64,000 bases of DNA from Spirochaetota bacterium (GCA_965224715.1 OZ245054.1:1300334-1364333); one strand, 5' to 3'. Positions 33,683 to 59,485 are shown, counted from the first letter of the stretch. Program-made: numbers and translations. The notes: generated by a model from the sequence alone, not told the origin.

Positions 33683-33895
33683 ATTTACTTAAAAATCAAG
33701 AAACAGAAAGTCAGATTTATATAATATGTCAATTCTCTGCGTATCTTCCGCATTCTTTACAGTTATACCTCCAGTACCTCAAAATTTTTTTATTTCTTCT
33801 TTCCTTTAGTGATTTTCATTAATCGCAGAGATCGTTGAGTTTTCGTTATACCACAAGATAATATTTATTTCCTAGAAAAATTCTAAATTATTTTA
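33683..33895 (+). repeat. Intergenic repeat family, copy A (core 33805-33894)
   Basis: It aligns with 42407-42597 over its whole length and with 38411-38630. The conserved core is TTTAGTnATTTTnATTAAnCGCAGnG...TGAnTTTT..AC.GTATCACAAGATAA...CTAGAAAAATTCTAAATTATTTT. Confidence 0.8.
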
Positions 33896-33971
33896 TTTTT
33901 TTATTTTTTAAAATTTTATTCCAATAAATTTGTCTAATTTGTTTTTTGGAATCAGGACTTTATTTTTATCA

Positions 33972-34000
33972 TTTACATGTTATTCATTTTATGATATAAT
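33972..34000 (+). promoter_or_regulatory. Candidate sigma-70 promoter of the liv-like operon (TTTACA-N17-TGaTATAAT)
   Basis: TTTACA is at 33972-33977, followed by a 17-nt spacer and an extended -10 ending at 34000, 50 nt upstream of the ATG at 34050. Confidence 0.5.
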
Positions 34001-34049
34001 TTAGACCAAATTTTTTGAATATATTTTCGACTTTATTTTGGAGGAAAAA

Positions 34050-35105: not shown

Positions 35106-35173
35106 ATTTAGTTTACTTTTTATAATTTGTTTTCTTATTCCCTAAATAATTTAGGGAATAAGATACCTTTACT

Positions 35174-37687: not shown

Positions 37688-37690
37688 AAT

Positions 37691-38407: not shown

Positions 38408-38410
38408 TGA

Positions 38411-38630
38411 CTACATAAAAAAGAAAGATGTAAAAGTTAAAAGATTTGGAGAATTACCTTTTTCTAAAGGATATAATTTGAAGGAGGGTTTAGTATGAGC
38501 TATTCCTTTCATTATTTTTTCTATTTCTATTTTTTTAGTAATTTTCATTAACCGCAGGGCTCTCTGAGTTTTTACCGTATCACAAGATAAATTTTACTAC
38601 TTAGAAAAGATCTGAATTAATTTCATATTT
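38411..38630 (+). repeat. Intergenic repeat family, copy B (core 38534-38623; more diverged)
   Basis: The core TTTAGTAATTTTCATTAACCGCAGGGCTCTCTGAGTTTTTACCGTATCACAAGATAAATTTTACTACTTAGAAAAGATCTGAATTAATTT matches copies A and C. Confidence 0.7.
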
Positions 38631-38715
38631 TACTTGTAAAAATGTTAAAAGCATAGTATTATTTAAGTAAATATCAAAATTTAAATAAATGAAACAATTT
38701 TTTTGAAGGAAAAAC

Positions 38716-41835: not shown

Positions 41836-41850
41836 TAGCTTTTAATCCTG

Positions 41851-41883
41851 GATTTCCCCTTTAAGAAAAAGGGGAAATCTTTT
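41851..41883 (+). terminator. Rho-independent terminator of the lipoprotein gene
   Basis: An 11-bp stem GATTTCCCCTT/AAGGGGAAATC with a 7-nt loop is followed by TTTT, 16 nt after the stop codon. Confidence 0.75.
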
Positions 41884-41923
41884 GCATACAATTAAATTCA
41901 AGTTTTATAATGATTGTTTAAAC

Positions 41924-41952
41924 TTGACAAAATTATTTTTTCATGATATATT
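41924..41952 (+). promoter_or_regulatory. Orphan consensus-like sigma-70 promoter (TTGACA-N17-TGaTATATT) with no annotated gene downstream
   Basis: TTGACA is at 41924-41929, followed by a 17-nt spacer and an extended -10 TGaTATATT ending at 41952. The next ~800 bp have no ORF of 60 aa or more on this strand, apart from the repeat artefact. Confidence 0.45.
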
Positions 41953-42259
41953 TTATGTAGAAAACAAAATTGATGTTTCCTTTGATGTACCTTAGGGAGA
42001 ATTCAAGAATTTTCCCTAAGGTTAGTTTCGCTAGGTATCCTAAATATTTGTGTCTCGCTTATAGCATAAAGAATGGTTCTAGTTGTTACAGGGATTTCCC
42101 ATGTAGGTTTCGCTTACGTTGGAGCATGGTATTGAGTTTATGTTAATGATTGGCAGACGAATAGAGGACTAGTTTTCAATCGTAAGAATAGATATTTTCA
42201 TTTGTTCAGTTTATCGCCTCCCCCTGACCCTTCAATTTCACTTGGGGGATTGGGGGAGG

Positions 42260-42368
42260 AAATCACAAATCACAAATCACAAATCACAAATCACAAATCA
42301 CAAATCACAAATCACAAATCACAAATCACAAATCACAAATCACAAATCACAAATCACAAATCACAAAT
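42260..42368. repeat. Heptanucleotide microsatellite (CACAAAT), ~15.5 units
   Basis: A perfect 7-bp periodicity runs over 109 bp. It generates the artefactual ITNHKSQ x5 ORF at 42202..42405. Confidence 0.95.
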
Positions 42369-42406
42369 ATGTTGGCCGAAGTCTATGAATGATATAAATT
42401 ATTAAT

Positions 42407-42597
42407 ATTTACTAAAAATAAAGAAATAGAAAGCCAGATTTATATATGATATGTAAATTTTTGTGTATCTCTGCAGTTCTATCTCCATTCAAAATTTTTC
42501 TATTTTTTAGTAATTTTTATTAACCGCAGAGGTTGTTGATTTTTTTTACTGTATCACAAGATAAACTTTATTATCTAGAAAAATTCTAAATTATTTT
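42407..42597 (+). repeat. Intergenic repeat family, copy C (core 42506-42597)
   Basis: It aligns end to end with copy A (33683-33895) and ends with the same CTAGAAAAATTCTAAATTATTTT. Confidence 0.8.
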
Positions 42598-42757
42598 GTA
42601 TTTGAGAACTGTCAATAATTTATAATAATCAAGTATCTATTGAAGTCATGGAAGTATTTCCATGAGGATTATTACAAGCTAATTACAATTAAAACATATT
42701 ATTTCTCTATGTGATATTTTTTTGTATAGTTCTATACAGAAACTCATAACTTCAAAA

Positions 42758-43303
42758 CTAAAAGTAATAGTCCCAAACTGCAGAGATAAAGTAATAGATA
42801 GTTATCATGGTCAATATTATTTTGAATAAAAACATGGCTATGTTTAGGAGAGTAGCATATCCCGTAGCTTTAAGAGAATAGCCAATAGAGGAGAGGTTGA
42901 GGGTTTTTCTATGATATAGTTCGCCAGTGAATGTACCAATGATTCCACCGATAATAACTCCGATTGGCGGGAAGAAAAAAAGACCGATGAATATCCCGAT
43001 AAACGCCCCCCAAACTCCTGAGGATGAAAATTTGAAAACTTTGCTACCAATGACCGGGAGAATAAAGTCGCTGATCAGGGATAGTAGATGAATACTACCT
43101 AAGACAATTAATAATGTTATAGTGATAGTAAAGGGATCTTCATCACCCGGTAAGTTGGAAATTTTATTAGGAACTAATAGATACCAAAGCAAAATACTAA
43201 TATAGGATAAGATCGGACCGCCAGGTATGACAGGGATTATTATGCTAATTAAAGCGATAAAGATCAGTAATGAACCGGCGATAACAACTATTTCTGGAAT
43301 CAC
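42758..43303 (-). CDS. Small integral membrane protein (DUF456-like)
   Basis: The 181-aa protein has 4-5 hydrophobic helices, the N-terminal IIPVIPGGPIL motif and glycine-rich helices. The family assignment is by eye only. Confidence 0.45.
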   Translation of the reverse strand: MIPEIVVIAGSLLIFIALISIIIPVIPGGPILSYISILLWYLLVPNKISNLPGDEDPFTITITLLIVLGSIHLLSLISDFILPVIGSKVFKFSSSGVWGAFIGIFIGLFFFPPIGVIIGGIIGTFTGELYHRKTLNLSSIGYSLKATGYATLLNIAMFLFKIILTMITIYYFISAVWDYYF

Positions 43304-43305
43304 AT

Positions 43306-45060
43306 TTAATACATCTTCTTTATTTCATGGGAATACTTTTCTAATAAAAATTTACGGCGAATGTTCATTTTTGGGGTAATCTCACCTTCTTCAATAGAAA
43401 GCCGTTTCCAAATAGGTTTGAATTTGACGATCTTTTCCCATGAATTCAACTCGTCATTAATCTTTTTGATGTATTCTTTTAGATTTTCTTCACAGCTATC
43501 TCGATTTTCCTGTTCGGTATTCATAAAAAAAAGAGCACTGACATATTTCTTATTATCTGCTACGATTAGGGCAGTATCCACATAGAGATTTAATTCTAAT
43601 TTCTGCTCCAAGGGTAGAGGGGCAATATATTTTCCATTAGAGAGTTTATAGAGGTCTTTTATTCTTCCGGTGATTATCAAATTACCTTCATTATCCAGTT
43701 TTCCCTGATCACCAGTTTTAAACCAACCATCCCGGGTTATAACTTCTTTGGTCAATTTGGGCTTTTTATAATAACCTTCCATTACTGAAGGACTTTTAGT
43801 TAGAATTTCTTCATCTTCAATTTTTACCTTAATTCCGGGAAAGAGTGGCCCTACGGTATAAGGTTTATTATAGGTTAGATGATTGGTGGAAATGATGGGA
43901 GAGGTTTCAGTAAGTCCATAACCTTCTACCACATTGACTCCAATGTTTATAAAAAATCTCAGAATTTGATGAGGTAAAGCTGCTCCTCCATTGACGATTA
44001 CCTTAAAATTATCTCCTAGGGCTTGACGGAATTTTTTATAAACTAATTTTTCAAAAATAGGGTAAAGAATACTATGTTGAGGGTTGTCTTTAGACGATTT
44101 GGGAAGTGAATGGCTCTCTGCATACTCTATTGCTTTTGTTATCAGTATCTTTTTGATTCCTTTTTGTTGTTTAGAGGCAGAACTCATCCTTTCATATACT
44201 TTGCCTAAGATTCTGGGAACAACGGTCATTATTGTGGGACGGATCTCTCTAATGTTGTCTCCTAATTGATTGAGATTGGGAGAAAAATAAATAGAAATAT
44301 TTTGAGCCAAAAAAAAGTTGATAATAGTATGCTCAAAGATATGAGCAAGAGGAAGACAGCTCACAGCATAATCCTGACCAGATATTAACGGAAACCTTTT
44401 GGGGATTCCATTGGTTTGATGAAGAAGATTGTGGTGGGTAAGCATGACTCCCTTAGGTTCACCCGTAGAACCACTGGTATAGATGATTATTGCTATTTGT
44501 TTTCTTGGAATTTTTTTTAAATCAGTAATAAAACTATCTCTTTTAGTTTTTTTTGATTGAAGTGACTTCTTTCCTAATTCGATAATTTCTGTAAATGAAA
44601 TAAACTTTTTTTTATATTTTTTTGGAATATTGCTGACTTTGATATCGTCGTAAACAATCCTTTTAAGTTTTTCTAGAAACGGTTTTATGGTGATTAACGC
44701 CTCTTGGCTACAAATGAAAATATATCGCATGCCAGTTTCTTTGATCTGATATCGGAGATTGGTTTGAGAAATATTAACAAATGCAGGCACTGGAATTAAT
44801 CCACTTGCCATAATACTTTGGGAATAGAATAGCCAAGTAGGGTTAGAAGGAGAGATGAGCCCAATTGGCTCTTGTTTTTTGAAAGTCATTTTTCTTTGTG
44901 AATGAAGTTTGTCCAATCCTAAAGTAGCTTCTTTTACGATACTAAGGAATTCACTTCCAGAGTAACTTATCCAAGTATTATTTTTCTTAATGTTAAGTAG
45001 CCGAGGATTAGTCAGTTTACTTGTAAAAAAAAGATAAGGAATGTTCAAATTCAATCTCAA
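43306..45060 (-). CDS. Long-chain fatty acid--CoA ligase (AMP-forming)
   Basis: The AMP-binding motif is IIYTSGSTGEPKGVMLTHHNL. Other matching blocks are GYGLTETSP, TGD.G..D..G.L.ITGR.KD and KLSNGKYIAP. Confidence 0.85.
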   Translation of the reverse strand: MRLNLNIPYLFFTSKLTNPRLLNIKKNNTWISYSGSEFLSIVKEATLGLDKLHSQRKMTFKKQEPIGLISPSNPTWLFYSQSIMASGLIPVPAFVNISQTNLRYQIKETGMRYIFICSQEALITIKPFLEKLKRIVYDDIKVSNIPKKYKKKFISFTEIIELGKKSLQSKKTKRDSFITDLKKIPRKQIAIIIYTSGSTGEPKGVMLTHHNLLHQTNGIPKRFPLISGQDYAVSCLPLAHIFEHTIINFFLAQNISIYFSPNLNQLGDNIREIRPTIMTVVPRILGKVYERMSSASKQQKGIKKILITKAIEYAESHSLPKSSKDNPQHSILYPIFEKLVYKKFRQALGDNFKVIVNGGAALPHQILRFFINIGVNVVEGYGLTETSPIISTNHLTYNKPYTVGPLFPGIKVKIEDEEILTKSPSVMEGYYKKPKLTKEVITRDGWFKTGDQGKLDNEGNLIITGRIKDLYKLSNGKYIAPLPLEQKLELNLYVDTALIVADNKKYVSALFFMNTEQENRDSCEENLKEYIKKINDELNSWEKIVKFKPIWKRLSIEEGEITPKMNIRRKFLLEKYSHEIKKMY

Positions 45061-46676: not shown

Positions 46677-48089
46677 ATGAAAATTAAAACTCATTCTGAC
46701 TGTCTTGCTTTAATTAAGCAAAACAATATCATGTTTGTTGATATCCAGTTTGGAGATCTCTATGGTAGATTACATCATTTTACAATACCAGCTAGTCAAT
46801 TTAGTAAAGAAGTTATTGAGAATGGTATTCCTTTTGATGGCTCCTCTATTCGTTCATGGAAGGGAATAGAAAAGTCAGATATGCTTCTTGTTCCTGATCC
46901 ATCATCTATCTATACTGATCCTTTTAGGGAAGTACCAACCGCTTGTCTTTTTGGAAATGTATTGGATCCTAGAACTAGGCAAAAGTATGATAAGGACCCC
47001 CGATCAGTCCTTGGCAATGCTATTGAGTATATGAAATCATTGGGTATTGGAGATACTTTTTTTTGTGGACCAGAGCCAGAATTCTTTATTTTTGATTCAA
47101 TTCGATATTCCTCTGAAAAAAATATGTCTTTTTATCAAATCGAAAGCAATGAAGGTCCTTGGACTAGTATGGATGAGGGAAGCCTTGGAAATAAGATAGA
47201 GTATAAAGGTGGATATTTTCCTGTTACACCTGCGGATAGTTTGATGGATATTCGGAATGAAATTGCTTCCCATATCGATAATATGGGGATGGTTTGTGAA
47301 GTTCATCATCATGAAGTGGCAACTGCTGGGCAATGTGAGATTGATTTTAAATTCGATAGTGCTATTCAAAGTTGTGACAATATTTATAAGTTGAAATATG
47401 CGGTTAAAAATACTGCTCACAAATATGGTAAGACAGCTACCTTTATGCCAAAACCGATTTTTGAGGATAATGGGAGTGGGATGCATGTCCATGTATCGAT
47501 TTGGAATAATGGGAAAAATACTTTCTATGGTGATGAATATGCTTCACTCAGTAAAAATGCATTATATGCTATTGGTGGAATACTCAAGCATGGGAGATCT
47601 ATTCAAATTTTTACAAATCCGACTTGTAACTCTTATAGACGACTAGTCCCTGGTTATGAAGCACCAGTTCGTTTGGCATATTCTTCTACTAATCGTTCTG
47701 CAACAATCAGAATCCCTTATTCTGAAGGTGAAAATTCAAAACGAATTGAATTTAGATGTCCTGACTCTTCCGGTTCGCCTTATTTAGGAGTTGCGGCTAT
47801 CCTTATGGCTTGTATTGATGGGATTACCAATCAGATTGATCCAGGTGACCCGATGGATAAAAATATTTACGATCTTCCACCTGAGGAGTTGAATAATCTT
47901 GAATCAACCAGTGAAAGTTTAGAACATGCTATTCGTGAATTTGAAAAAGACAATGAGTGGATTAAGAAAGGTGGTGTTTTTACTGATAGCTTAATTTCTT
48001 CTTATATCGAATATAAAATGGAAAATGAAATTGAGCCATTGAAGTTAAGACCCAATCCATATGAATTTAGTCTTTATTATAATTTATGA
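46677..48089 (+). CDS. glnA: Glutamine synthetase, type I
   Basis: The 470-aa protein has an FVD.QF.D..G-type N-terminus and the blocks FDGSSI and GSGMHVHVS (Mn/ATP site). The NSYRRLVPGYEAP and RIE.R.PD..GSPYL blocks are also present. Confidence 0.9.
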   Translation: MKIKTHSDCLALIKQNNIMFVDIQFGDLYGRLHHFTIPASQFSKEVIENGIPFDGSSIRSWKGIEKSDMLLVPDPSSIYTDPFREVPTACLFGNVLDPRTRQKYDKDPRSVLGNAIEYMKSLGIGDTFFCGPEPEFFIFDSIRYSSEKNMSFYQIESNEGPWTSMDEGSLGNKIEYKGGYFPVTPADSLMDIRNEIASHIDNMGMVCEVHHHEVATAGQCEIDFKFDSAIQSCDNIYKLKYAVKNTAHKYGKTATFMPKPIFEDNGSGMHVHVSIWNNGKNTFYGDEYASLSKNALYAIGGILKHGRSIQIFTNPTCNSYRRLVPGYEAPVRLAYSSTNRSATIRIPYSEGENSKRIEFRCPDSSGSPYLGVAAILMACIDGITNQIDPGDPMDKNIYDLPPEELNNLESTSESLEHAIREFEKDNEWIKKGGVFTDSLISSYIEYKMENEIEPLKLRPNPYEFSLYYNL

Positions 48090-48113
48090 AGATTTGTTGA
48101 ACCCGTTCCACAG

Positions 48114-48148
48114 CCTCCCGCATAACTCCTTTAGCGGGAGGTTTTTTT
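48114..48148 (+). terminator. Rho-independent terminator of glnA
   Basis: The stem is CCTCCCGC/GCGGGAGG (8 bp) with a 12-nt loop, followed by T7. Confidence 0.8.
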
Positions 48149-48282
48149 ATAATTTCTCTTAAATTTTTTTTGACCTAATCTATCCGTGGGCTAAAGCCAG
48201 ATAAACTGTACTGGCAACTAATCTCTGATAAATTTTAGGAATTTATAAAGTTGGAAATGAAAAACTAAAATTTGAGATTGTA

Positions 48283-49965
48283 CTATTTTTCGTAAATTAA
48301 TTTCTCAGTAAGTTTTAGATTTTCAGCTGAAGCCTCTTTTCCCATCATCCGAGTAAACTCAGTAAGGAGTTCTTTCTTATCCAATAAGTTTATTTTTGTC
48401 TGAGACTTGCCGGTTGTATTTGTTATTTTTTCGATACGAAAATGACGGTTAGCAAATTTAGCGATTTGAGGAAGATGAGTGACAACGATAACTTGTTTAG
48501 TATTACTGATTTCTTTGATCTTTTTTCCGATTTTTACTGCAGCTATTCCCCCTACACCAGTATCGATTTCATCAAAGATGATTGTTTCATTAGGAAGAGA
48601 TTGATTGAGGAGATGTTTGATAGCCAACATAATTCGAGATAATTCCCCTCCAGATGCGATCTTCTTTAGAGGTTTGGCATCTATTCCTTTGCCAGGCGAA
48701 TAAAGGAATTCCAATTTATTGAGTCCTCTATCATTAAAATACTCTATCCAAGAGTCATGAGATATACTGTCTTTTAATTCAGGGGTTAATGCTACAAGAA
48801 AATTGGCATTTTTAATTTCGAGATCTTTAATTTCTTTATTGATGCTATCTTCAAAAGACTTGATTCCGTCTTGGCGGATACGATGTAACATTAAAGCGGC
48901 TTCCCAGCATTGTATTTCTACCTGTTTTAGATTGGTGAGTATTTTCTTTTTTTCATATTCAGCATTTTCCAATCGATTTAGTTTAGTTTTGAGTGATTCA
49001 TATTTATTGATTAAGGTAGAGTGATTGGTATTATATTTGCGAAGTAGTTTTTCGGTACCTGATAGTTTTTGATTGAGTTGGTCGATTTCATAGAGATAGT
49101 TGTGATTGTATTGATAATCATAATTTTGAAGTATAGTCTCGCCAAGTTCCTGGATTTGATCGATAAGAGATAAAAGTTCTTTTGATTTTATTTTAAGAGT
49201 TTCTGATAATGAAAGTTTTAGTAGGGTTGAAGAAGCTTTTTCCATACCGGCAACTGTTTTATCAATCGATTCCTTGAATTCAGTAAGAGTATGATAGTTT
49301 TTTTCAGAGGTTTCGACTTCTTTAAGACGATTTTTGAGTTCACTATATTCTTTTTCATTCAAAAACTTTCCTTCAAATTCCTTCATAGAGTAGAGAATAA
49401 ATTCTTTCTCTTCTTTAAGTTGGGCTTCTTCAATGTCAACTTCATTGAAAAGTTTTCGGAGTTCTTTTAACTGAAAAAAACACTTTTTGTAATGAGTTAA
49501 TTCTTCTTTAAGATTAAGGGTCTGATCAAAAAAGAATAGGTGATAATCACTATTGAAAAGATGTTGGTTTTGGTGTTGAGAATGAATATCTATAAGTTTT
49601 TCAGAAATTTCTTTTAATAGTGAGAGATTAGTAGGTTGCCCATTGATTAAACATCGGCTTTTGCCATCCTTGGAAATCTCGCGCTTGAGTATAATTTCCT
49701 CTTCTTCTCCAATACCCAGATGTGAATATTTTTTCTTAATCATAGTATTTTTGTGGATATCGAAGATGGAGGTAACTTCAATTTTGTTTTTACTAGGACC
49801 AATCAAATTTAAATCAATTTTATTTCCTAGAGTAATGCCTAGGGCATTGAGTAGGATTGATTTTCCAGCTCCAGTTTCACCAGTGATTACATTGAAACTT
49901 GGTGAAAATTTCAAGCTAGCATCATTGATGAAAATGAAATTTTTAATAATCAATTGTTTTAGCAT
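48283..49965 (-). CDS. recN: DNA repair protein RecN
   Basis: I moved the start to the internal ATG at 49965 (MLKQLIIKNFIFI...), the canonical RecN N-terminus. This removes the 90-nt overlap with the upstream gene. Walker A is GETGAGKSILLNAL, the middle is coiled-coil, and the C-terminal blocks are ASGGELSRIMLAIK and IFDEIDTGVGG. Confidence 0.9.
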   Translation of the reverse strand: MLKQLIIKNFIFINDASLKFSPSFNVITGETGAGKSILLNALGITLGNKIDLNLIGPSKNKIEVTSIFDIHKNTMIKKKYSHLGIGEEEEIILKREISKDGKSRCLINGQPTNLSLLKEISEKLIDIHSQHQNQHLFNSDYHLFFFDQTLNLKEELTHYKKCFFQLKELRKLFNEVDIEEAQLKEEKEFILYSMKEFEGKFLNEKEYSELKNRLKEVETSEKNYHTLTEFKESIDKTVAGMEKASSTLLKLSLSETLKIKSKELLSLIDQIQELGETILQNYDYQYNHNYLYEIDQLNQKLSGTEKLLRKYNTNHSTLINKYESLKTKLNRLENAEYEKKKILTNLKQVEIQCWEAALMLHRIRQDGIKSFEDSINKEIKDLEIKNANFLVALTPELKDSISHDSWIEYFNDRGLNKLEFLYSPGKGIDAKPLKKIASGGELSRIMLAIKHLLNQSLPNETIIFDEIDTGVGGIAAVKIGKKIKEISNTKQVIVVTHLPQIAKFANRHFRIEKITNTTGKSQTKINLLDKKELLTEFTRMMGKEASAENLKLTEKLIYEK

Positions 49966-51215
49966 GATTGATTGAGAATTTGCTTCTGTAATTGTGTCGT
50001 ATGATGATGTCCAGAATAATGACCAATTACTCGACCATGGAAGGTACATCCACAGAGATACAAGTCACCGATGATGTCTAGAATTTTGTGCCGGGCAAAT
50101 TCATTGGGATAGAGAAGCTCAGTATTAATAACTTGACCTTTATCGATAAGGATACCAGTTTTTAGGTCAGTCCCTTGTGCAAGTCCGTGATCATATAATT
50201 GCTTTATTTCATCAAGAAAACCAAAAGTTCGGCAGGGAGCAATTTCTTTAATAAATGTTTCCTTAGGATTATTTTTGAAATCAATATCATATTTCTGTTC
50301 TCCAAACTGTTCAGGAAAGTTGAGAGTATAAGATATCGATAACCCATCATAGGGGATAAATTTGATCCAGATATCTGAATTTTCTTGGTCATGAAAGATA
50401 TATTCTTGATTGATTTTTAATATTTTCTTTGGGCTATCTTGTGTTACTAGACCAACTTTATCGATAGTCCGACAAAAAGCGATAGCGGATCCATCAAAAA
50501 TTGGAATTTCTTCGCTAACTTTGATATGAAGATTATCTACTCCATACATATGGAGAACTGAAAGGAGATGTTCTACTACCGTTAAACTGAAATTTTTTTT
50601 TCTAAGAGTAGTTGCATAAAAGTTAGCTTCAACTAGATTATCTATATGAGCTTCTAGTCTTTGTTCAGATGCAATATCTTCAAAAATAATTCCAGTATTA
50701 GCAGGGGCTGGAAGGAGAATAATCCCAGTATTTTTTCCCTTATGTAATCCTTTCCCAGTTAACACAGTACTACTGGCAATAGTTTTTTGTTTCTCATCAA
50801 TTTCATGAATAAATTTTGAAGTGTTTATCTCTGAGAAATGTTTATATTTCTCTTCTTGGTTAAGAAGGATAGCAATCTTTTGAATTAGCTGATCAATTTG
50901 AAAGGGTTTTTCAATAAAATCACTAGCCCCTTTTTTTAGCATTTCAACTGAAGTAGCAATATTTGCATGTCCAGACATGATAATGATAGGGGTGTCAGTA
51001 TTAAGTTCACGGATTTCTTTTAATATTGTAAAACCATCTTTTCCTGGCATCCATATATCAAGTAGAATTAAATCTATTGATTTGCTGAAATATGATTGCC
51101 AGGAATTCTGATCCAAGCAAATATGAATATTAAATTTATCTTTTAAGGCGTTTTTTATAGCCTTACCAATGTTTTCTTCATCATCAATGACAAGTAGGTG
51201 GTGTTTTTGTGACAT
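49959..51215 (-). CDS. lpxC: Response-regulator receiver domain fused to UDP-3-O-acyl-N-acetylglucosamine deacetylase (REC-LpxC)
   Basis: Residues 1-125 form a complete receiver: VIDDEE, the phospho-acceptor context LILLDIWMPGKDG, IIMSGH and IEKPF. Residues ~140-418 form LpxC, with TVVEHLLSVL (Glu-His), EIPIFDGSA and ARHKILDIIGDLYLCG (His...Asp zinc ligands). The YSGHHH block is also present. Confidence 0.85.
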   Translation of the reverse strand: MSQKHHLLVIDDEENIGKAIKNALKDKFNIHICLDQNSWQSYFSKSIDLILLDIWMPGKDGFTILKEIRELNTDTPIIIMSGHANIATSVEMLKKGASDFIEKPFQIDQLIQKIAILLNQEEKYKHFSEINTSKFIHEIDEKQKTIASSTVLTGKGLHKGKNTGIILLPAPANTGIIFEDIASEQRLEAHIDNLVEANFYATTLRKKNFSLTVVEHLLSVLHMYGVDNLHIKVSEEIPIFDGSAIAFCRTIDKVGLVTQDSPKKILKINQEYIFHDQENSDIWIKFIPYDGLSISYTLNFPEQFGEQKYDIDFKNNPKETFIKEIAPCRTFGFLDEIKQLYDHGLAQGTDLKTGILIDKGQVINTELLYPNEFARHKILDIIGDLYLCGCTFHGRVIGHYSGHHHTTQLQKQILNQSC

Positions 51216-51351
51216 TCATGAGTCCTATAAAAGTGAGTCACTTAAAAAAATTAGCAAAGAAAATGAAAGAATAATATCATTCATTCATGATAAAAAAGTT
51301 AATATCAATTTCATTACAAAATTAATTGATTTTGATCAGTAGATAATCAAT

Positions 51352-51597
51352 TTATTTAAGCTTGAATTTCTTTTTGAATTTTTCGACTCTACCCTCAATG
51401 TCTATAATTTTATCATCTCCAGTAAAAAATGGATGTGAGGCACTAGATATCTCCATCTTAAAAAGGGGATACTCCTTTCCATCATCCCATTTAATTGTTT
51501 CATTAGTTTTTACACTAGAAAATTCTTTAAATGAGAAATCACAGGAGATATCTTTAAAAACCACTTCTCTATAAGTAGGATGAATCTTTTTTTTCAT
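51352..51597 (-). CDS. rpmE: 50S ribosomal protein L31 (type B, no CxxC zinc motif)
   Basis: MKKKIHPTYREVVF.D......F...S...T...I.W.DG.EYP...MEISS.SHPFFTG matches L31, and the cysteine pairs are absent. Confidence 0.85.
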   Translation of the reverse strand: MKKKIHPTYREVVFKDISCDFSFKEFSSVKTNETIKWDDGKEYPLFKMEISSASHPFFTGDDKIIDIEGRVEKFKKKFKLK

Positions 51598-51757
51598 TTC
51601 AAAACTTTCCTATCAAAATATAGTATAATTTTAACATAGATTCCTTAAAGATTAATAATATAATCATTTTTAATATTTTAAATAATTGATTATAATATTA
51701 TCCGAGTTAGCATTATTTTTTGACTGAGACTGGAATTTACTGTATTTATCTAATTAT

Positions 51758-52216
51758 GTGAGTAAAGCTATGAATGAAGAAGGTTTAGAAGCGATTTACA
51801 GATGTATTGATAAAACAAATATTAAAGAGATTTATATTAAAACTGGGAAAGGTACGGAAATTAAGATTACCAGAAGTTCTGACTCTGTTCAGAATGTTGC
51901 CCGTAAAAATAATAATTTGACTTTTAAGTCAGATAAATTAGTAGAGGATTCTTCTACATCCAATCAATTTGATATTATTTCTCCAGAAGTTGGTTTTTTT
52001 AATCGGTTTGATCCCAAGACAAAACAACAATATCAGAAACTTCGAGATATAGTAGAAAAGGGAGAAATTGTAGCTACCGTTGTCTCCTTACATACTCATC
52101 ACAATATTGTTGCAGATAAGACGGGTAAGATTATTGAGTTTTTAGTGGAGCAAGACCAACCAGTGGCTTATGGTCAGCCTCTAATTCGTTTAGAAAAAAT
52201 AGATTCGGGGAACTGA
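51758..52216 (+). CDS. Biotin carboxyl carrier protein-like protein lacking the biotinyl-lysine motif
   Basis: It lies immediately upstream of accC with BCCP-like size and layout. The C-terminal biotinyl-domain fold GEIVATVVSLHTHHNIVADKTGKIIEFLVEQDQPVAYGQPLIRLE aligns with E. coli [41 protein letters not shown]. The E-A-M-K-M segment is replaced by V-S-L-H-T. Confidence 0.7.
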   Translation: MSKAMNEEGLEAIYRCIDKTNIKEIYIKTGKGTEIKITRSSDSVQNVARKNNNLTFKSDKLVEDSSTSNQFDIISPEVGFFNRFDPKTKQQYQKLRDIVEKGEIVATVVSLHTHHNIVADKTGKIIEFLVEQDQPVAYGQPLIRLEKIDSGN

Positions 52217-52217
52217 T

Positions 52218-53570
52218 ATGGGTAAGAAAGTTATTAAAAAGATTTTAATAGCAAATCGTGGGGAAATCGCCCTTCGCGTTATTCGAGCGTGTAAGGAGAT
52301 GGGTATTCAAACTGTATCGGTTTACTCTAAAGTTGATGAAAAATCTCTTCATAAAAATTTTGCTGATGAAAGTGTTTGTATTGGAGAGGCTCCATCCATA
52401 TCTTCCTATCTCAATATTCCGCGTATTATCGCTGCTGCTCAGATTACTGGGGCGAATGCTATCTATCCTGGTTATGGATTTTTATCTGAAAATCCTATTT
52501 TTGCAGAGGTCTGTGAGCAAAACAATATTATTTTTATTGGCCCTGATAAAAAAACCATGGAAATGATGGGTGACAAAATTACTGCTAAAGAGACTATGAA
52601 GAAAGCAGGAGTTAATCAACTACCTAGTAGTGGTAATCTATCCAATCGGGAAGAAGCGCTTAAAGAAGCTAAAAGAATTGGTTATCCTGTAATACTTAAA
52701 GCCACTGCAGGAGGTGGAGGTAAGGGAATGAGAATTTGTGAAAATAAGAAGGATATCCTCAAATATTTTGAAGTTACCAAAACCGAAGCGATGGTATCCT
52801 TTGGGAATCCAGATGTTTATATGGAAAAATATTTGAAGGATCCTTATCATGTGGAAATTCAAGTGATAGGGGATTCCCATGGAAACTATATTCATTTAGG
52901 AGAAAGAGATTGTTCCATACAAAGGAATCATCAAAAATTGATTGAAGAGACTCCATCTATTCATGTTGACCAAAAACTTCGTGAGGAGATTTTCTCTGCT
53001 TCTTTACGGGCGGTTAAATTGGTGAATTATGAGGGCACTGGTACCCTTGAGTTTTTAGTCGATAAGAATAATTATTATTTTATGGAAATGAATACTCGCA
53101 TCCAGGTGGAACATACCATTAGTGAGCTTTACACTGGAATCGATATTATTAAAGAACAAATCCGAGTTGCGATGGGAGAAAAGTTATCCTATCAACAAGA
53201 TCAGATTATTTATCGTGGACATGTTATTGAATGTCGTATCAATGCTGAAGATCCTGAAAATGGATTTATTCCTAGCCCCGGTAAGATTAACCGTTATCAT
53301 ATACCACAAGGTTTAGGGGTTAGAGTTGATTCTCACGTCTTTGATGGCTATGAAATACCATCCAATTACGATTCCATGATTGCTAAACTTATTGTTTGGG
53401 GTTTGAATCGTGAAGAAGCGATAAGCCGAATGAAACGTTCTTTGGATGAAATTGTTATCAGTGGGGTTAAAACAACTATCCCTCTGCATTTCCAGATAAT
53501 CACAAGTAATGATTTTAAGACTGGTAAGTTTTCTACAAATTTTTTAAATAAGTTTTCATTTAAAAAATAA
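52218..53570 (+). CDS. accC: Acetyl-CoA carboxylase biotin carboxylase subunit
   Basis: KILIANRGEIALRVIRAC, PGYGFLSEN, the ATP-grasp block GYPVILKATAGGGGKGMR, and EMNTRIQVEHT all match biotin carboxylase. Confidence 0.9.
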   Translation: MGKKVIKKILIANRGEIALRVIRACKEMGIQTVSVYSKVDEKSLHKNFADESVCIGEAPSISSYLNIPRIIAAAQITGANAIYPGYGFLSENPIFAEVCEQNNIIFIGPDKKTMEMMGDKITAKETMKKAGVNQLPSSGNLSNREEALKEAKRIGYPVILKATAGGGGKGMRICENKKDILKYFEVTKTEAMVSFGNPDVYMEKYLKDPYHVEIQVIGDSHGNYIHLGERDCSIQRNHQKLIEETPSIHVDQKLREEIFSASLRAVKLVNYEGTGTLEFLVDKNNYYFMEMNTRIQVEHTISELYTGIDIIKEQIRVAMGEKLSYQQDQIIYRGHVIECRINAEDPENGFIPSPGKINRYHIPQGLGVRVDSHVFDGYEIPSNYDSMIAKLIVWGLNREEAISRMKRSLDEIVISGVKTTIPLHFQIITSNDFKTGKFSTNFLNKFSFKK

Positions 53571-53581
53571 GATCGTTTGAC

Positions 53582-54931
53582 TTGCAATATCCTTCCAATA
53601 ATCAATCCTACTGGCAAAATGAGGAACGTAGTGATCAAATCAGAGTTATTAAGGATTTAAAAAAAGGTAGGTATACATCCGCCCTAAAGACTTTATCCCA
53701 TTATCCCAAGCAAAAGACAATATTAAAAGATGATATTGAGGGTTCAATAGGGGAATACTTTGTTCATATCCATAGTGCTTATGCTTATTTTCTTCTTAAT
53801 CAGCATACCGAAGCAAAAAGATGTTTGGAGAATATTCTTCATCAGCAACCTCTTGATGGTCAGACAAATTTATTTTTAGCTTATATCTACCTACTAGAGG
53901 GCAGTAAGACTGAAGCGATTCATCGTTATACGATCTTATTAGAGAATCCATTTTATCGTTCTAAGTCCAAAGAAATTTTAAATAGTATTCGTCATTCCGA
54001 ATCTATAATCGCATTATTGGGTGAGAGACCCATTAGATTTTTCTATCGACATCAATTTCCTAATTTCATATACGAGGAGTGGAAATTGTTAGGTATTGAA
54101 ATATTGCAAAAGTTAAAAGGATATACATGGAAGTGTTTATTTTTTTGTTTCAGCTTATTTAAATATTTTTATAGATTCAATATCTTAAGCCTTTTTTCTG
54201 TTCCATATAAAAATCGATTAATTACTTTTTTTTTAAAACGTTCGACACAATTGATTCTATTATTAATATTTTTCGGATTATTGTTTTTTTGGAAGCAGGA
54301 AATTATCCATTGGCTTTCAAGTGAAAGCTATTTTGATATTAGAAAAAATGATTCACAAATATTCTCCCAAGTTATTATGGATAAATATGGGAAAGATGCC
54401 ACAAGGTGGTTAGGTATTTATCGAGATATGGAACAGCTAATCAAGCGACGACAATTCAATCAAGCCCTTAAATTATATAATACAATTAATACTAGAGAAG
54501 ATTACCCGATTGAGGTAAAAAATAAATTTTATATATTGTCCACTTTTATTTCTCCACCTCATTTTGATGAATTGGTTCCTATCTTATCTTTTCATGACAT
54601 CAGTCAAAGTGAGCTTGATAATTACAAAAATTCCAATCATCCAATAGGACTCTATTATAAGATTGCATTTCGGGTATTACAGATGAATTCAATTAATTCA
54701 AATAAATTCTTGATTGAATTGTTAAATGATGTACAAAAAACAAAAAATGGAAGTGAAACTCGTAGAGCATTCTCTGCTAATCGAGCTATTCTTATTATCG
54801 AAGATAATGATAGTAGTTTAGAAGTTGGAAATAGTTATGAAGCCATTATCCAACTTGAAATCCAAGAAAAAAAATATTTGGTATTCACTTTGGTGGTAGT
54901 ACGTTCTCCTGTAAGGGTTCCACGTGAATAA
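53582..54931 (+). CDS. Hypothetical membrane protein with N-terminal TPR-like repeats
   Basis: TPR-like helices (AYAYFLLNQHTEAKRCLENIL..., LFLAYIYLLEGSKTEAIHRY) are followed by 2-3 hydrophobic helices. No family was recognised. Confidence 0.35.
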   Translation: MQYPSNNQSYWQNEERSDQIRVIKDLKKGRYTSALKTLSHYPKQKTILKDDIEGSIGEYFVHIHSAYAYFLLNQHTEAKRCLENILHQQPLDGQTNLFLAYIYLLEGSKTEAIHRYTILLENPFYRSKSKEILNSIRHSESIIALLGERPIRFFYRHQFPNFIYEEWKLLGIEILQKLKGYTWKCLFFCFSLFKYFYRFNILSLFSVPYKNRLITFFLKRSTQLILLLIFFGLLFFWKQEIIHWLSSESYFDIRKNDSQIFSQVIMDKYGKDATRWLGIYRDMEQLIKRRQFNQALKLYNTINTREDYPIEVKNKFYILSTFISPPHFDELVPILSFHDISQSELDNYKNSNHPIGLYYKIAFRVLQMNSINSNKFLIELLNDVQKTKNGSETRRAFSANRAILIIEDNDSSLEVGNSYEAIIQLEIQEKKYLVFTLVVVRSPVRVPRE

Positions 54932-55814
54932 AATCAGTATTTTTATTTTCTTCCAAATGGTGGTTGCTATATATTCCCCTGTTTATTCTGCGGTAGGTTT
55001 TTTTAGTCAAACTTTAGATTTTGACTATCAGTTGGTTGAAGAAAATATTTATTACTATGATGGATACCTCAATAATGAATTAGAGAATTCTACTATTAGT
55101 AACGATCACTCAGAATATGGCATGAATTATTTGATAAAATCAAAAACAGGCTTTCATCATAGGTATTTCGCTTTATTGTTTGAATATGTTTTAGCTATTG
55201 AAACAGAGAAACGTTATAATCATATTGATAGCAACCTCGAGACATTGAATAAAAAAATACTAAGTCATCAATTAAATCCTATAGTGTTTTTTCAATGGAA
55301 ACCTTTCCGATTGGGAATGGGGTACCGTTTTGACATTCGCAGTAAACCTATAGCCAACAAACAACGACAAAGTATACGTCCTTATGATGTTCTCTCATTT
55401 TATTTTCATATCCATTTTCCGGAGCTATGGTATCGTTCTCCGATTGGACTAGGTGCCTATTATGAATTATCATTTAATCCAAAATATTCCTTTGGAGAAA
55501 TTCCCAATCATCTTTTCCATAATGCTGCGTTTAGTTTTCATATCAACTTTAACTATTTGAGTCAATTCCAGATTATGTTCACATATCAACGATCGGAGTC
55601 GCAAGTCACATTATATAAGGTTAAAAATGATTCTGATTACTCTGCAATTCCCAGAGATTTTTTAGCCCGTTACTATATTGACTATTCCTTTACCCATCAG
55701 ATTCTTAAAGAAGTAGCTCTTCGAATTGGAATAGGGAATTTAATTTATTCTAGCTTTGAATCTCCTGTTTTGAACTTTAATATTGGAATCACTTATTCTT
55801 TTTTTCGAATTTAA
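54924..55814 (+). CDS. Hypothetical exported protein, possible outer-membrane beta-barrel
   Basis: A signal-like N-terminus is followed by alternating aromatic-rich strands, and the protein ends ...GITYSFFRI. It overlaps the upstream gene by 8 nt. Confidence 0.35.
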   Translation: MNKISIFIFFQMVVAIYSPVYSAVGFFSQTLDFDYQLVEENIYYYDGYLNNELENSTISNDHSEYGMNYLIKSKTGFHHRYFALLFEYVLAIETEKRYNHIDSNLETLNKKILSHQLNPIVFFQWKPFRLGMGYRFDIRSKPIANKQRQSIRPYDVLSFYFHIHFPELWYRSPIGLGAYYELSFNPKYSFGEIPNHLFHNAAFSFHINFNYLSQFQIMFTYQRSESQVTLYKVKNDSDYSAIPRDFLARYYIDYSFTHQILKEVALRIGIGNLIYSSFESPVLNFNIGITYSFFRI

Positions 55815-56522: not shown

Positions 56523-57278
56523 TTATAAAGACAGAGTTAATATCTCAACTCCTGTCTCAGTAATTAATACTGTGTGTTCGAATTGGGCTGAAAGAGAATT
56601 ATCTTCAGTTCTGACCGTCCATTTATCATCCTTATCAACAAAAATTCCATAGGAGCCAGCATTGATCATTGGTTCAATAGTGAATACCATTCCTGGCTTG
56701 AGTTTGGTTTTTAGATGAGGGTCGTAATAATGGGGTACAAATGGATCTTCGTGAAAAAAACGACCTGTACCATGTCCTCCCAGCTCTTTTACCACTCCAT
56801 AGGAAAATTTATTTGCATAAGATTCAATAGTTTTACCTATCGAATTTAAATTGTGGGATTTTTCAAGAACGGAAATTCCATATTCCATAGCTTGCTTAGT
56901 TCTTTCTACTAGTAGTTGGGCTTCAAGAGATGGTCTACCTATCAAGAATGTTCTACAAGAATCAGCATAATAGCCATTTTTTATAAGAGCAATATCTATA
57001 CTGATAATATCTCCATCTTGAAGAACATCCTCTTTTTTGGGGATACCATGACAAACTACATTGTTAATAGAAGTACAAATGCTTTTGGGATAACCACGAT
57101 AGTTGAGAGTGGCTGGTTTAAGTCCATGACTAACCATCCAATCATGACAGAATTTATCTAACTCTAAGGTATTCTGTCCAGGAATAAGAAGAGGTGGTAA
57201 TGCCTCAAACAACTGGGCTACATAACTACCCGCTATTCTTATTTTTTGTATTTCTGATGGACTTTTAATATAGATCAT
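56523..57278 (-). CDS. map: Methionine aminopeptidase, type I
   Basis: Matching blocks are CHGIP, DIVNID-like DIISIDIAL, the GHG.G...HE metal ligands (GGHGTGRFFHEDP), FTIEPM and AQFEHTVLIT. Confidence 0.9.
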   Translation of the reverse strand: MIYIKSPSEIQKIRIAGSYVAQLFEALPPLLIPGQNTLELDKFCHDWMVSHGLKPATLNYRGYPKSICTSINNVVCHGIPKKEDVLQDGDIISIDIALIKNGYYADSCRTFLIGRPSLEAQLLVERTKQAMEYGISVLEKSHNLNSIGKTIESYANKFSYGVVKELGGHGTGRFFHEDPFVPHYYDPHLKTKLKPGMVFTIEPMINAGSYGIFVDKDDKWTVRTEDNSLSAQFEHTVLITETGVEILTLSL

Positions 57279-59485
57279 GAATGTTGAGAGATAATGTTTG
57301 CTACTTCTTCTTGAGACTTTGATTCGATTAATCGATTTTTGATATTAGTGCTCATAAATAACTGAGAGATTGTAGAAATAATCCAGACATGTCTATCTGG
57401 GTCACCGCTGGGACTTATTAATACAAATAATATTTTACAGAAAAGTTTATCATAACTGTTGATATCAAAACCATTTTTTGAAATGACTACTCCTAAGATC
57501 GGTTTTGTGACTTTACTATCCAGTAAATGCATAATACCTGCTTCTTTGCCTAGAGCTATGGAGCCATCTTCATGTTTGGCTATCATCCCTTTTAATAAAC
57601 TTTGAGAATCAATTTTTTCGAACTGTTCTAATTGATTAGCTAAATGACTATAAAGGTGGTGAGGATGGGTGGATTCATTAAAAATAACTAAATGAGTTTT
57701 AAAAAAATGATGAAGCTTAAATCCTTCACGACAGAAGAATAAACATTGGACTTTTTTAGCTTCTTCAGGATTATCTAGGATATCTTGATCAAGCTTTAAT
57801 TCCACTTGATTATTATAAAAATATAATAAAGAGATGTTTTTTTCATCTCGTTCGGAGTATGGTTTTTCTATCAACTGCACCTTACTTTCGATGATTTCTG
57901 AAGATATAATTGAAGGACTAGGAAGAGTATCCCAAATAGGCTGACCGATTAAACTTTCTTCCCCATCCTGACTATTTCCTTTTTCCCAGCGGAAAAGATT
58001 TTCACGGTGAATTAGATTTCGCCAATGCTGACAAATAAGAGCATTAAGATCTTGGTTATCAGTTAAACTTATTAAGGTTGAGGAATTAAAAAATCTCTCA
58101 TCACTATAAACATTTGAGGAGAGGACATCACGATTAATGGCATTAAGACCTTTTCGTTTTAGCCAATCCACACGATTAATGTTGTTATCCACAATAATGA
58201 CCTCATAACCTTTAGTGATAAGGTATCGATATAATACTTCGCTGAACTCATGAGCCCCAATAATAATCCATTCTCTGTTTTGTTGTTGCTTAACTTGAAG
58301 AATACGAGCGACTGGCCCAACTGTTAGTCCCTGGATAAGGACAGTTGTAAAAATAACTGAAAAAGTAAGAGCTTCCGCAAACCAAGCTATATTATTGTAT
58401 TGACTTTCATTAGAAAGGTAAAATGCAAAAAGTGTGGACATAGAAGCAGCTACAATACCACGTGGTGCCACCCAAGAAATAAATAGTTTTTCTCTTAAAT
58501 TTAAACCACTGTTTATGCTGCTGCAGAAAACATTGATGGGACGAATGACTAGGATAATGATCACTAAAAGTAATATTCCCTTTCCTCCAAGTACAATAAT
58601 TTTACTAAAATCTAAGCTTGAGACAATCAAGATGAACAGTAGGGCAACTGAAAGATGGGTGATTTCTAATTTGAATCTTTTCACTTCTTCTGTAACAATA
58701 TTTTTCTGATAGCCAGTGATAGTTCCCGCAATAACTGTAGATAGAAGACCTGATTCAGAAACAAAAAAATCACAAATGCTGAAAGTGAAAATGGCCATAA
58801 CTAGGACAAAAATATTTATGTAATCTGTAGGTATCCATTTTCTTTTTATACATTGACTAGCTAAAAAACCAGAACTGATCCCAAAAATAGTACCAAAAAA
58901 TATTCTCAATAATAGGTTTGCTCCAACTGTAATACCTCCTCCACTGGGCCAATAAAGAAGTACTTCAAAAGAAAGGGTAGCAATAAATACTCCTATAGGA
59001 TCAATCAAGACTCCTTCCCAATGTAAAATATTGAATATCTTTTTATTGACTTGGATCCTTCTTAAAATTGGTATAATCACAGTTGGTCCGGTTACAATTA
59101 TAAGGCTGCTGGCAAAAATGGAAAAACTGAAAGGAAGATCGAAAATGAAATATATTGCTAATGCATTGCCTATCCAAGTAATTGCCACACCAAGAGTAAG
59201 AAGTTTCCAGATTATTTTACTAGTTTTACGGTAGACCGAATAATCTAATGTGAGTCCAGCTTCGAAAAGGATAATAGCTATACCTAGGGAAATAATTGTT
59301 TTGAATGAACTGCCAAACTCTTCAGTATATATCCAGTGAAGACCCTCAGGTCCAAAGATATAACCGAAGAAAAGAAAAAATAAAATTGGAGTCAGATGCA
59401 ACTTTTTAGCCAAGAGATGGGATAATAATCCCAAGCCGAGAGCTAAGCCGATACTCCAAAGTATTGGATCAAAGTGTGATGACAT
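57275..59485 (-). CDS. NhaP/CPA1-type cation:proton antiporter fused to a degenerate RCK/TrkA-N domain and a C-terminal PTS EIIA(type 2)-like domain
   Basis: The ~390-aa multi-TM Na_H_exchanger region is followed by IIIGAHEFSEVLYRYLITKGYEVIIVDNN, which is TrkA-N-like without GxGxxG. The C-terminus KHEDGSIALGKEAGIMHLL...KILFVLISPSGDPDRHVWIISTISQLF resembles PtsN/EIIA-2. Confidence 0.7.
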   Translation of the reverse strand: MSSHFDPILWSIGLALGLGLLSHLLAKKLHLTPILFFLFFGYIFGPEGLHWIYTEEFGSSFKTIISLGIAIILFEAGLTLDYSVYRKTSKIIWKLLTLGVAITWIGNALAIYFIFDLPFSFSIFASSLIIVTGPTVIIPILRRIQVNKKIFNILHWEGVLIDPIGVFIATLSFEVLLYWPSGGGITVGANLLLRIFFGTIFGISSGFLASQCIKRKWIPTDYINIFVLVMAIFTFSICDFFVSESGLLSTVIAGTITGYQKNIVTEEVKRFKLEITHLSVALLFILIVSSLDFSKIIVLGGKGILLLVIIILVIRPINVFCSSINSGLNLREKLFISWVAPRGIVAASMSTLFAFYLSNESQYNNIAWFAEALTFSVIFTTVLIQGLTVGPVARILQVKQQQNREWIIIGAHEFSEVLYRYLITKGYEVIIVDNNINRVDWLKRKGLNAINRDVLSSNVYSDERFFNSSTLISLTDNQDLNALICQHWRNLIHRENLFRWEKGNSQDGEESLIGQPIWDTLPSPSIISSEIIESKVQLIEKPYSERDEKNISLLYFYNNQVELKLDQDILDNPEEAKKVQCLFFCREGFKLHHFFKTHLVIFNESTHPHHLYSHLANQLEQFEKIDSQSLLKGMIAKHEDGSIALGKEAGIMHLLDSKVTKPILGVVISKNGFDINSYDKLFCKILFVLISPSGDPDRHVWIISTISQLFMSTNIKNRLIESKSQEEVANIISQHS

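Follow-up and report, generated by a model that had tools for sequence, protein, structure and literature searches.

A receiver domain fused to LpxC in a Spirochaetota bacterium: a widespread, putatively NtrX-derived family that may place lipid A synthesis under phosphorylation control

We describe a gene for a two-domain protein in a 64,000-nucleotide stretch of DNA from a Spirochaetota bacterium (GCA_965224715.1 OZ245054.1:1300334-1364333), which we refer to in its full length as the window, with positions counted from its first letter. The gene, at 49959-51215 on the minus strand, encodes a protein of 418 aa in which an N-terminal response-regulator receiver (REC) domain is joined to LpxC, the UDP-3-O-acyl-GlcNAc deacetylase that commits the cell to outer-membrane lipid A. 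Judged from sequence comparison REC-LpxC is a widespread but unstudied fusion family, present in at least six phylum-level groups. We consider it fairly likely that in these proteins LpxC is gated post-translationally through phosphorylation of the receiver, which would have been inherited from an NtrX-type regulator.

LpxC controls the flux of lipopolysaccharide (LPS) synthesis, is usually essential and is a major antibiotic target. Its regulation is understood almost exclusively for enterobacteria and some further proteobacteria, in which it operates via proteolysis. Outside the well-studied proteobacteria LpxC control is poorly understood (review PMC12444477).

The two domains

The gene is a single open reading frame (ORF) of 418 codons and a stop, found in the ORF list and by Pfam and TIGR00325. 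As the initial annotation had proposed, it holds a complete CheY-like receiver and a complete LpxC, and the motifs named there are all present and rightly assigned. The receiver occupies aa 8-114 (50874-51194, minus strand; Pfam Response_reg, E=1.5e-24, profile 2-110/111) and is by a narrow margin closest to that of NtrX. It has the signature LLDIWMP ... MSGHANIATSV ... GASDFIEKPF, and the five residues expected of a working receiver are intact: D11 and D12 of the acidic pocket, the predicted phospho-acceptor D53 in LLDIWMP (codon at 51057-51059, minus strand), S81 in IMSGH and K103 in EKPF. Conservation was assessed in an alignment of 69 two-domain homologues that are 37-63% identical to the window protein; D11, D12, D53 and K103 are each present in 69/69 and S81 in 68/69. 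The (beta-alpha)5 topology of a receiver is seen in the AlphaFold model.

The LpxC domain occupies aa 143-414 (49974-50789, minus strand; Pfam E=1.8e-79, profile 1-267/268), and the NCBIfam lpxC equivalog TIGR00325 gives 231.5 bits against a cutoff of 187.25. By alignment to E. coli LpxC, in which the catalytic residues fall at the expected numbers, E215-H216 in VEHL (50568-50573) are equivalent to E78, the general base, and H79, a zinc ligand. In the same way H376, K377, D380 and D384 in HKILDIIGD (50064-50090) correspond to H238, K239, D242 and D246, which are zinc ligands and substrate-binding residues, and H403 in SGH (50007-50009, all on the minus strand) to the catalytic H265. The catalytic and zinc residues are invariant in the 69 homologues, and all seven (E215, H216, H376, K377, D380, D384 and H403) are invariant in a clade of 53 fused LpxCs that is described below, E215-H216 being also invariant in 100/100 other LpxCs. 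T330, the equivalent of E. coli T191, is T in 50/53 and S in 3/53 of the clade. Pseudomonas aeruginosa LpxC is the closest solved structure by phmmer against PDB (1e-48), and Foldseek places the LpxC part of the model on it with a root-mean-square deviation of 1.4 A, the TM-scores to the listed P. aeruginosa, E. coli and A. aeolicus LpxC structures being 0.85-0.94. With the LpxC-FabZ model PRK13188 the protein aligns just in the LpxC part (profile positions 3-220; 207 bits, cutoff 465), and it is without a C-terminal FabZ domain.

We thus predict a catalytically competent LpxC. As both sets of residues are invariant among proteins of 37-63% identity, the alignment indicates that both functions, the phosphorylation site of the receiver and the active site of LpxC, are under purifying selection.

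The junction between the domains

The domains are joined by a linker of about 25 aa (aa 118-142; 50790-50864, minus strand), of which residues 122-130 are predicted to be disordered, with a predicted local distance difference test score (pLDDT) below 50. The region is AT-rich with homopolymer runs of A5-A8, which are error-prone in long-read assemblies, and this would favour the fusion being an artefact in which a single-domain response regulator and lpxC are joined by a frameshift or a lost stop. Against this, a start codon from which LpxC could be made by itself is lacking, as the sole in-frame ATG, GTG or TTG in aa 100-175 is a GTG at V151, 8 residues inside LpxC, and the other two frames are closed across aa 110-150 by multiple stops. 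PF00072 and PF03331 occur together in 120/120 of the best matches in a collection of 5.8 billion proteins, and these come from independent projects (NCBI, ENA, JGI and Logan assemblies), with contigs of 1.7-3.9 Mb among them. The family alignment is ungapped through the junction, and the spacing from K103 to LpxC, 38 residues here, lies within a narrow 37-58 across the 69 two-domain proteins. The continuity of the ORF at this point, on which the initial annotation had made its proposal depend, is thus supported by the sequence and by the homologues. On the absence of an LpxC start codon, the closed frames and the 120 fused matches, merged-gene error is effectively excluded, its chance being negligible, and the junction is taken as genuine.

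Distribution and phylogeny of the fusion family

The census of the family is based on matches in the protein collection and on a scan of GTDB species genomes. Among the matches listed, full-length REC-LpxC is present in Acidobacteriota (Thermoanaerobaculia, Holophagae, Terriglobia and Aminicenantes), Binatia/Binataceae, Thermodesulfovibrionia, Spirochaetota, Syntrophobacter(aceae), Syntrophorhabdaceae, Desulfocapsaceae and other "Deltaproteobacteria", and longer versions of 650-736 aa are present in Nitrospinota, Schekmanbacteria, metagenome-assembled genomes (MAGs) labelled Thermodesulfobacteriota, and Desulfomonile. An isolate, Desulfopila sp. IMCC35006, also has it (locus L033; fetched loci are given as L numbers and proteins as P numbers). 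There is no spirochaete among the GTDB-scan matches listed, and the spirochaete members come from the protein collection, in which the closest named relatives of the window protein are Spirochaetes/Spirochaetota MAGs.

The databases name the domain pair plainly "UDP-3-O-acyl-N-acetylglucosamine deacetylase". The term REC-LpxC does not occur in the full-text-searchable literature, outside which most subscription papers lie, and we found no description of LpxC with a receiver domain, response regulator, CheY-like or NtrX architecture in the same literature. The words receiver, fusion and fused are absent from the Journal of Biological Chemistry reviews of 2025 and 2026 on LpxC control. As far as can be told, then, the architecture is visible in databases yet unstudied, which agrees with the statement in the initial annotation that no characterised REC-LpxC enzyme was known. 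That annotation had called for a taxonomic census, allowing that the architecture might prove common and already characterised; it is still uncharacterised but it is not rare, as the clade extends across at least six phylum-level groups.

With regard to origin, we used the LpxC domain by itself (aa 136-418) as query against 1.84 billion representatives clustered at 50% identity. The search gave 4289 proteins at E<=1e-10, the best 41 or so being nearly all N-terminally extended, and ordinary stand-alone LpxCs of 280-310 aa begin only at about 1e-47. The fused LpxCs are about 1% of LpxC sequence clusters. In a distance-based neighbour-joining tree of 153 LpxC domains, which included 44 REC-bearing 50%-identity representatives, a split with bootstrap 70/100 sets apart 53 leaves that include 44/44 of these; the remaining nine leaves are three short LpxCs and six N-extended ORFs with no detectable REC, which are probably truncated. 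Four residues (G164, Y224, K232 and C248, numbered as in the window protein) mark the clade: they occur in 96% of its members, compared with 1-8% of the LpxCs outside it. From the 53-leaf grouping and these clade-specific residues the fused LpxCs are apparently a monophyletic clade that arose from one fusion event.

Two loci of the family are recorded here as side observations. In L088, from a Spirochaetes GWF1-type relative, a Wzy_C gene (3001-4233), O-antigen ligase/polymerase-like, comes directly after REC-lpxC, which fits an LPS-related role of the fusion. In L039 (3173-5670) a REC-containing ORF of 399 aa precedes one of 410 aa that has LpxC in its last 270 residues; the pair looks like a long NtrX-LpxC gene that was split by a frameshift or by true fission.

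Probable derivation from an NtrX-type regulator

The family includes four architectures by Pfam. The longest is REC-Sigma54_activat-AAA_lid-HTH_8-LpxC (P0023, 730 aa), followed by REC, a weakened AAA-lid and LpxC (P0037, 661 aa), then REC, about 120 aa and LpxC (P0036, 505 aa), and finally REC-LpxC, which includes the window protein. In the proteins of 491-505 aa the middle segment of about 100 aa is homologous to the helix-turn-helix (HTH) region that precedes LpxC in the long proteins (P0136 against P0147, 67% identity over 58 aa, 2e-22). By this homology these proteins are REC-HTH-LpxC with the AAA+ module deleted.

For the N-terminal 370-450 aa of five long proteins NtrX is the best NCBIfam model, above AtoC and NtrC, at 253-361 bits. 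In four of these (P0023, P0137, P0125 and P0064) the match is end to end (314-361 bits), and in P0037 it covers profile positions 4-391/452 only, the HTH_8 part being missing. GAFTGA is found in 0/17 AAA modules, and Walker A is kept in 15/17. NtrX is an atypical enhancer-binding protein (PMC6158489), and the missing GAFTGA, as expected of NtrX, supports an NtrX origin for the long forms. The family consensus for the receiver, LLDIWMP...SGHGNIxTAV...GAxDFIEKP, resembles the Brucella NtrX receiver. For the receiver of the window protein the best NCBIfam REC match is also NtrX (86.1 bits against 84), and its top PDB match is the Brucella NtrX receiver 4d6x/5m7n (70.9 bits against 70.3 for DrrD); over both databases NtrX leads RprY, FixJ and DrrD by only 0.6-3 bits.

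The window protein, which is without AAA+ and HTH, has only the REC of the NtrX architecture, and by this comparison would be a derivative of NtrX rather than a member. In the neighbour-joining tree short forms are basal, in a spirochaete group that contains the window protein, and are also nested among long forms. This nesting and the REC-HTH-LpxC intermediates suggest that an ancestral NtrX-LpxC protein was reduced repeatedly, probably more than once. We also considered the reverse, insertion of AAA+ and HTH into an ancestral REC-LpxC, and give it less weight as the less parsimonious course, given that the intermediates keep a homologous HTH and that short forms nest within long ones, although the tree is weak.

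The kinase

No histidine kinase is encoded in the window, as the initial annotation had noted. Our Pfam scan of the window covered 48 ORFs, that is 47 of at least 150 aa, REC-lpxC included, and rpmE, and neither HisKA nor HATPase_c is present in any of them.

For the family as a whole there is a good candidate. All ORFs of the fetched loci were searched by phmmer with the NtrY proteins of L004 and L006, which have the architecture NtrY_N-HAMP-PAS-HisKA-HATPase_c. Among fused loci whose upstream flank is 2.5 kb or longer, 16 of 43 have a gene for a full-length NtrY-like kinase directly upstream on the same strand (L004, L006, L009, L010, L012, L013, L016, L017, L023, L025, L027, L031, L035, L038, L041 and L043). 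It is upstream in all four Binatia loci, most Syntrophobacter-type loci, the Thermodesulfovibrionia locus and the Schekmanbacteria locus. Since the receiver appears to be the remnant of an NtrX-type regulator, we predict that the cognate kinase of the fusion family is NtrY-like and that for the window gene it is encoded elsewhere, unlinked. The suggestion in the initial annotation that a histidine kinase gates the enzyme is strengthened by the conserved receiver residues and by NtrY in the 16 related loci; the regulatory effect itself keeps the standing of a proposal.

Several observations weigh against a receiver of NtrX descent that is served by an NtrY-type kinase. The receiver of the window protein, taken alone, is just marginally nearer NtrX than it is to the DrrD or FixJ receivers, and the long forms, at 253-361 bits, fall below the NtrX equivalog cutoff of 600 bits (NCBIfam NF051870). 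The neighbour-joining tree is crude, with bootstrap 70, its basal branches are REC-LpxC, and the direction of loss is drawn from the intermediates. There is no adjoining kinase in six spirochaete-type loci (the window, L001, L002, L089, L091 and, with a 1-kb flank, L090), nor in those Acidobacteriota and Nitrospinota loci whose flank is long enough, and for the window genome the NtrY partnership is an extrapolation.

It is at this point that another view of the receiver has to be considered, namely that it is a structural remnant, a dimerisation or solubility module that goes unphosphorylated in kinase-orphaned spirochaetes, with LpxC constitutive. This agrees with the kinase being unlinked in every spirochaete-type locus, and pseudo-receivers do exist in other families. 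However pseudo-receivers are usually without the phospho-acceptor residues, while D11, D12, D53, S81 and K103 are all kept in the spirochaete lineage as well as family-wide, and in L089 a single-domain receiver gene directly upstream hints at an active phosphorelay. We regard the remnant explanation as rather improbable.

Some features of individual loci bear on the kinase. The lone receiver gene of L089 (7606-7977, 123 aa), which is followed directly by REC-lpxC and recN, suggests a multi-component phosphorelay or a phosphate sink. In L088 a 540-aa gene that overlaps the start of REC-lpxC was considered as a possible sensor and rejected, since its N-terminus resembles CN-hydrolases and it carries the SGGIDS motif of NAD synthetase; it is probably NadE and not a kinase. 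In L086 (9986-14705), from a "Deltaproteobacteria" MAG, the genes are unfused, with lpxC (311 aa), an NtrY-like kinase (753 aa) and a REC-containing protein (456 aa), and this lpxC-ntrY-ntrX order is possibly a picture of the gene linkage outside the fused clade.

Predicted structure and proposed mode of control

The AlphaFold model of the window protein, made with the 69 homologues, has a mean pLDDT of 90.3 and a predicted TM-score (pTM) of 0.82, and that of a Binatia orthologue of 39% identity (P0071) has a pTM of 0.87. Both have a disordered linker of 9-17 residues. We estimate that a pTM near 0.64 would result if two domains, of 283 and 120 residues, were placed independently of each other. 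As the observed values exceed this despite the disordered linker, a specific packing of REC on LpxC is predicted. The clade-specific LpxC residues are mostly in domain I, near the N-terminus where the receiver attaches.

That D53 is phosphorylated and that this affects LpxC are inferences, as would be any statement on which way the enzyme is shifted or which kinase acts in the window genome. The proposed sequence of events is as follows. An ancestral full regulator, REC-AAA+-HTH, would have been joined to lpxC downstream of an ntrY kinase gene, and the fusion then reduced, probably repeatedly, to REC-HTH-LpxC and REC-LpxC. A sensor kinase, NtrY-type where it is linked and encoded elsewhere in the spirochaete-like genome, would phosphorylate D53. 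The phosphate would alter the packing of the receiver on LpxC domain I, or drive dimerisation of the receiver via the alpha4-beta5-alpha5 face, and either change could take deacetylase activity or protein stability up or down. That the receiver acts on LpxC itself is suggested by the repeated retention of REC and its phosphorylation site after loss of AAA+ and HTH.

The C-terminus is relevant to the choice between activity and stability. The chain continues for 15 residues past the catalytic His here, against 40 in E. coli; the median is 17 in the fused clade and 34 for other LpxCs that stand alone. Neither the window protein nor the fused clade has the kind of C-terminal tail that in E. coli carries the FtsH degron. 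It could be that the receiver sets LpxC abundance, with phosphorylation exposing or hiding a degradation signal for Lon, Clp or FtsH that replaces the C-terminal degron. In addition to the missing tail, L002 (AP019861.1) has, between rpmE and REC-lpxC, a gene (9015-9812) for a stand-alone protein of 265 aa with a LON_substr_bdg domain, and Lon has been suggested as the LpxC protease in some alphaproteobacteria (review PMC12444477). However neither the window nor L090 has the Lon-domain neighbour, and the high pTM of the models suggests direct REC-LpxC contact that could act on catalysis. We think control of abundance unlikely, and it is in any case a sub-variant of gating by the receiver rather than a true alternative to it.

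Comparison with known systems

The NtrY/NtrX systems of Brucella, Caulobacter and Rhodobacter (4D6X, 5M7N) share with the family the receiver signature DIW.P, SGH.NI.T.V, GA.DFIEKPF, and the long relatives hold the whole REC-AAA+-HTH module without GAFTGA, with NtrY upstream in the 16 loci given above. The window protein differs from them in having no AAA+ or DNA-binding domain, so a role as transcription factor is excluded and the output is the LpxC enzyme; there is no ntrY nearby.

There is literature that connects such systems to lpxC. In R. sphaeroides deletion of ntrYX raises the lpxC transcript 8.8-fold and LPS about 2-fold (PMC7240162), and in C. crescentus lpxC is repressed by NtrYX (review PMC12444477). 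In D. vulgaris lpxC is the sole mapped target of the NtrC-family regulator DVU2934, and in S. fumaroxidans lpxC adjoins an operon orthologous to that of DVU2934 (PMC3333781). The reports for R. sphaeroides, C. crescentus and D. vulgaris provide an independent functional precedent for an NtrYX-lpxC connection. DVU2934 resembles the fusion in being a two-component regulator of the NtrC/NtrX family devoted to lpxC, as does the unfused lpxC-ntrY-ntrX of L086; it differs in that control is transcriptional and the proteins are separate.

In the case of response regulators with enzymatic output, CheB (REC-methylesterase), PleD and WspR (REC-GGDEF) and RpfG (REC-HD-GYP) likewise have an N-terminal receiver, a short flexible linker and a C-terminal enzyme, and a fixed inter-domain contact is predicted for the window protein. 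The receiver of CheB, when unphosphorylated, blocks the active site, and by analogy CheB may be the closest mechanistic template for REC-LpxC. The difference is that the output here would be a zinc amidase of envelope biogenesis rather than a signalling enzyme, and that REC-LpxC is known from sequence and model.

The stand-alone LpxC of E. coli is controlled by proteolysis (FtsH, LapB (YciM) and YejM), and compared with it the window protein lacks the degron tail, with 15 as against 40 residues, and has the N-terminal receiver instead. LpxC-FabZ of Bacteroidota and relatives is also a natural fusion of LpxC to a partner relevant to the balance of lipid A and phospholipid, but there the partner, FabZ, is a C-terminal enzyme, whereas in the window protein it is an N-terminal signalling domain. 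We tentatively suggest, at somewhat less than even confidence, that the receiver is a third, previously unrecognised means of LpxC control beside FtsH/LapB proteolysis and PbgA/YejM sensing, and that the fusion is a "Rosetta stone" of an ancient NtrYX-LpxC partnership.

Gene neighbourhood

REC-lpxC starts at an ATG (51215-51213) with an AGGA ribosome-binding site, read from the sequence, 7 nt 5' of it (51223-51226, minus strand). Upstream is rpmE for ribosomal protein L31 (51352-51597, minus strand; Pfam), a conserved neighbour, and downstream is recN (48283-49965, minus strand), for which Pfam SMC_N starts at aa 29 of the long ORF. In ATGCTAA the likely start of recN (ATG at 49965-49963) overlaps the lpxC stop, a 7-nt overlap at 49959-49965. 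The overlap suggests co-transcription or translational coupling, and coupled expression would involve a lipid A enzyme, REC-LpxC, and a DNA-repair protein, RecN. A promoter and terminator scan of 48000-51800 gave matches at or below the expectation from shuffled sequence.

The adjacency of REC-lpxC and recN is kept in the relatives L001, L002, L089, L090 and L091. The order accB / rpmE - REC-lpxC - recN / glnA - EamA is repeated in L090, a 62%-identical relative, and gene order is largely repeated in L002, a 40%-identical complete genome labelled Spirochaetota bacterium; rpmE followed by REC-lpxC is present in both. The L001 locus has fliD and a TP0873-type gene. The window, with a GC content of 30-38%, most probably comes from a low-GC spirochaete that is not in culture and has some 2 Mb of genome.

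The neighbourhood is relevant to the further possibility that the fusion is a paralogue of LpxC with an accessory role under particular conditions, or a deacetylase whose substrate has shifted, with a housekeeping lpxC elsewhere on the 2.1-Mb contig. The Pfam scan found no second lpx gene of any kind in the 64-kb window, and as these 64 kb are the part of the genome covered the paralogue view gains some room from this. It has to be set against a score above the lpxC equivalog cutoff with catalytic and substrate-binding residues invariant, the conserved housekeeping neighbourhood accB-rpmE-REC-lpxC-recN-glnA in relatives of 40-62% identity, and an apparently small genome (2.11-Mb contig). We consider a paralogue quite unlikely.

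Divergent from rpmE and REC-lpxC are accB and accC (51758-53570, plus strand), and the order accB-rpmE-REC-lpxC is also found in L090. They encode the biotin carboxyl carrier protein and biotin carboxylase, for the first step of fatty-acid synthesis, and genes for acyl-chain supply are thus side by side with the gene for commitment to lipid A.

Other features of the window

The 48 ORFs are housekeeping in content, with suf genes, secDF, infC, rpoD and two ATP-binding cassette (ABC) transporter clusters, and also glnA, recN, rpmE, accBC, lepB, map and mreBC. Three ORFs in 20997-24737 and two in 53582-55814 have no Pfam match. There are no tRNA genes in the 64 kb, and no Rfam families at the gathering threshold.

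A 736-aa protein (57275-59485, minus strand) combines an Na+/H+ exchanger membrane domain with TrkA_N and a phosphotransferase system EIIA(2) domain, and is thus also a fusion, of transporter and phospho-signalling parts. A probable surface protein of 1039 aa (38716-41835, plus strand) contains Listeria-Bacteroides (Flg_new) repeats together with a Chlamydia PMP repeat. In a 150-aa ORF (781-1233, minus strand) the match to the SufBD core is confined to its C-terminal half (profile 102-232/232), and the ORF may be a fragment or have a mis-called start; there are also intact sufB/sufD-like genes at 6412-9934. GC content is 0.36-0.38 over 24001-44000, which has the oligopeptide and branched-chain amino-acid ABC transporter clusters, and 0.30-0.33 in most of the remaining window, with one 4-kb block at 8-12 kb that reaches 0.37.

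Significance

The fusion clade ties together scattered reports of NtrYX-type systems affecting lpxC, and keeps a rare stepwise series for the reduction of a regulator to a receiver on an enzyme. If our interpretation is correct, an envelope-biogenesis enzyme joins the list of response-regulator outputs, and there would be a mechanistic account of the altered LPS in alphaproteobacterial NtrYX mutants. For the genome that includes the window it would mean that outer-membrane lipid A synthesis answers to a sensor kinase encoded outside these 64 kb. More generally the distribution of the family suggests that many bacteria may control lipid A synthesis through direct phosphorylation, and it offers a testable answer on LpxC control in Spirochaetota, Acidobacteriota, Binatia, Desulfobacterota, Nitrospirota and Nitrospinota.

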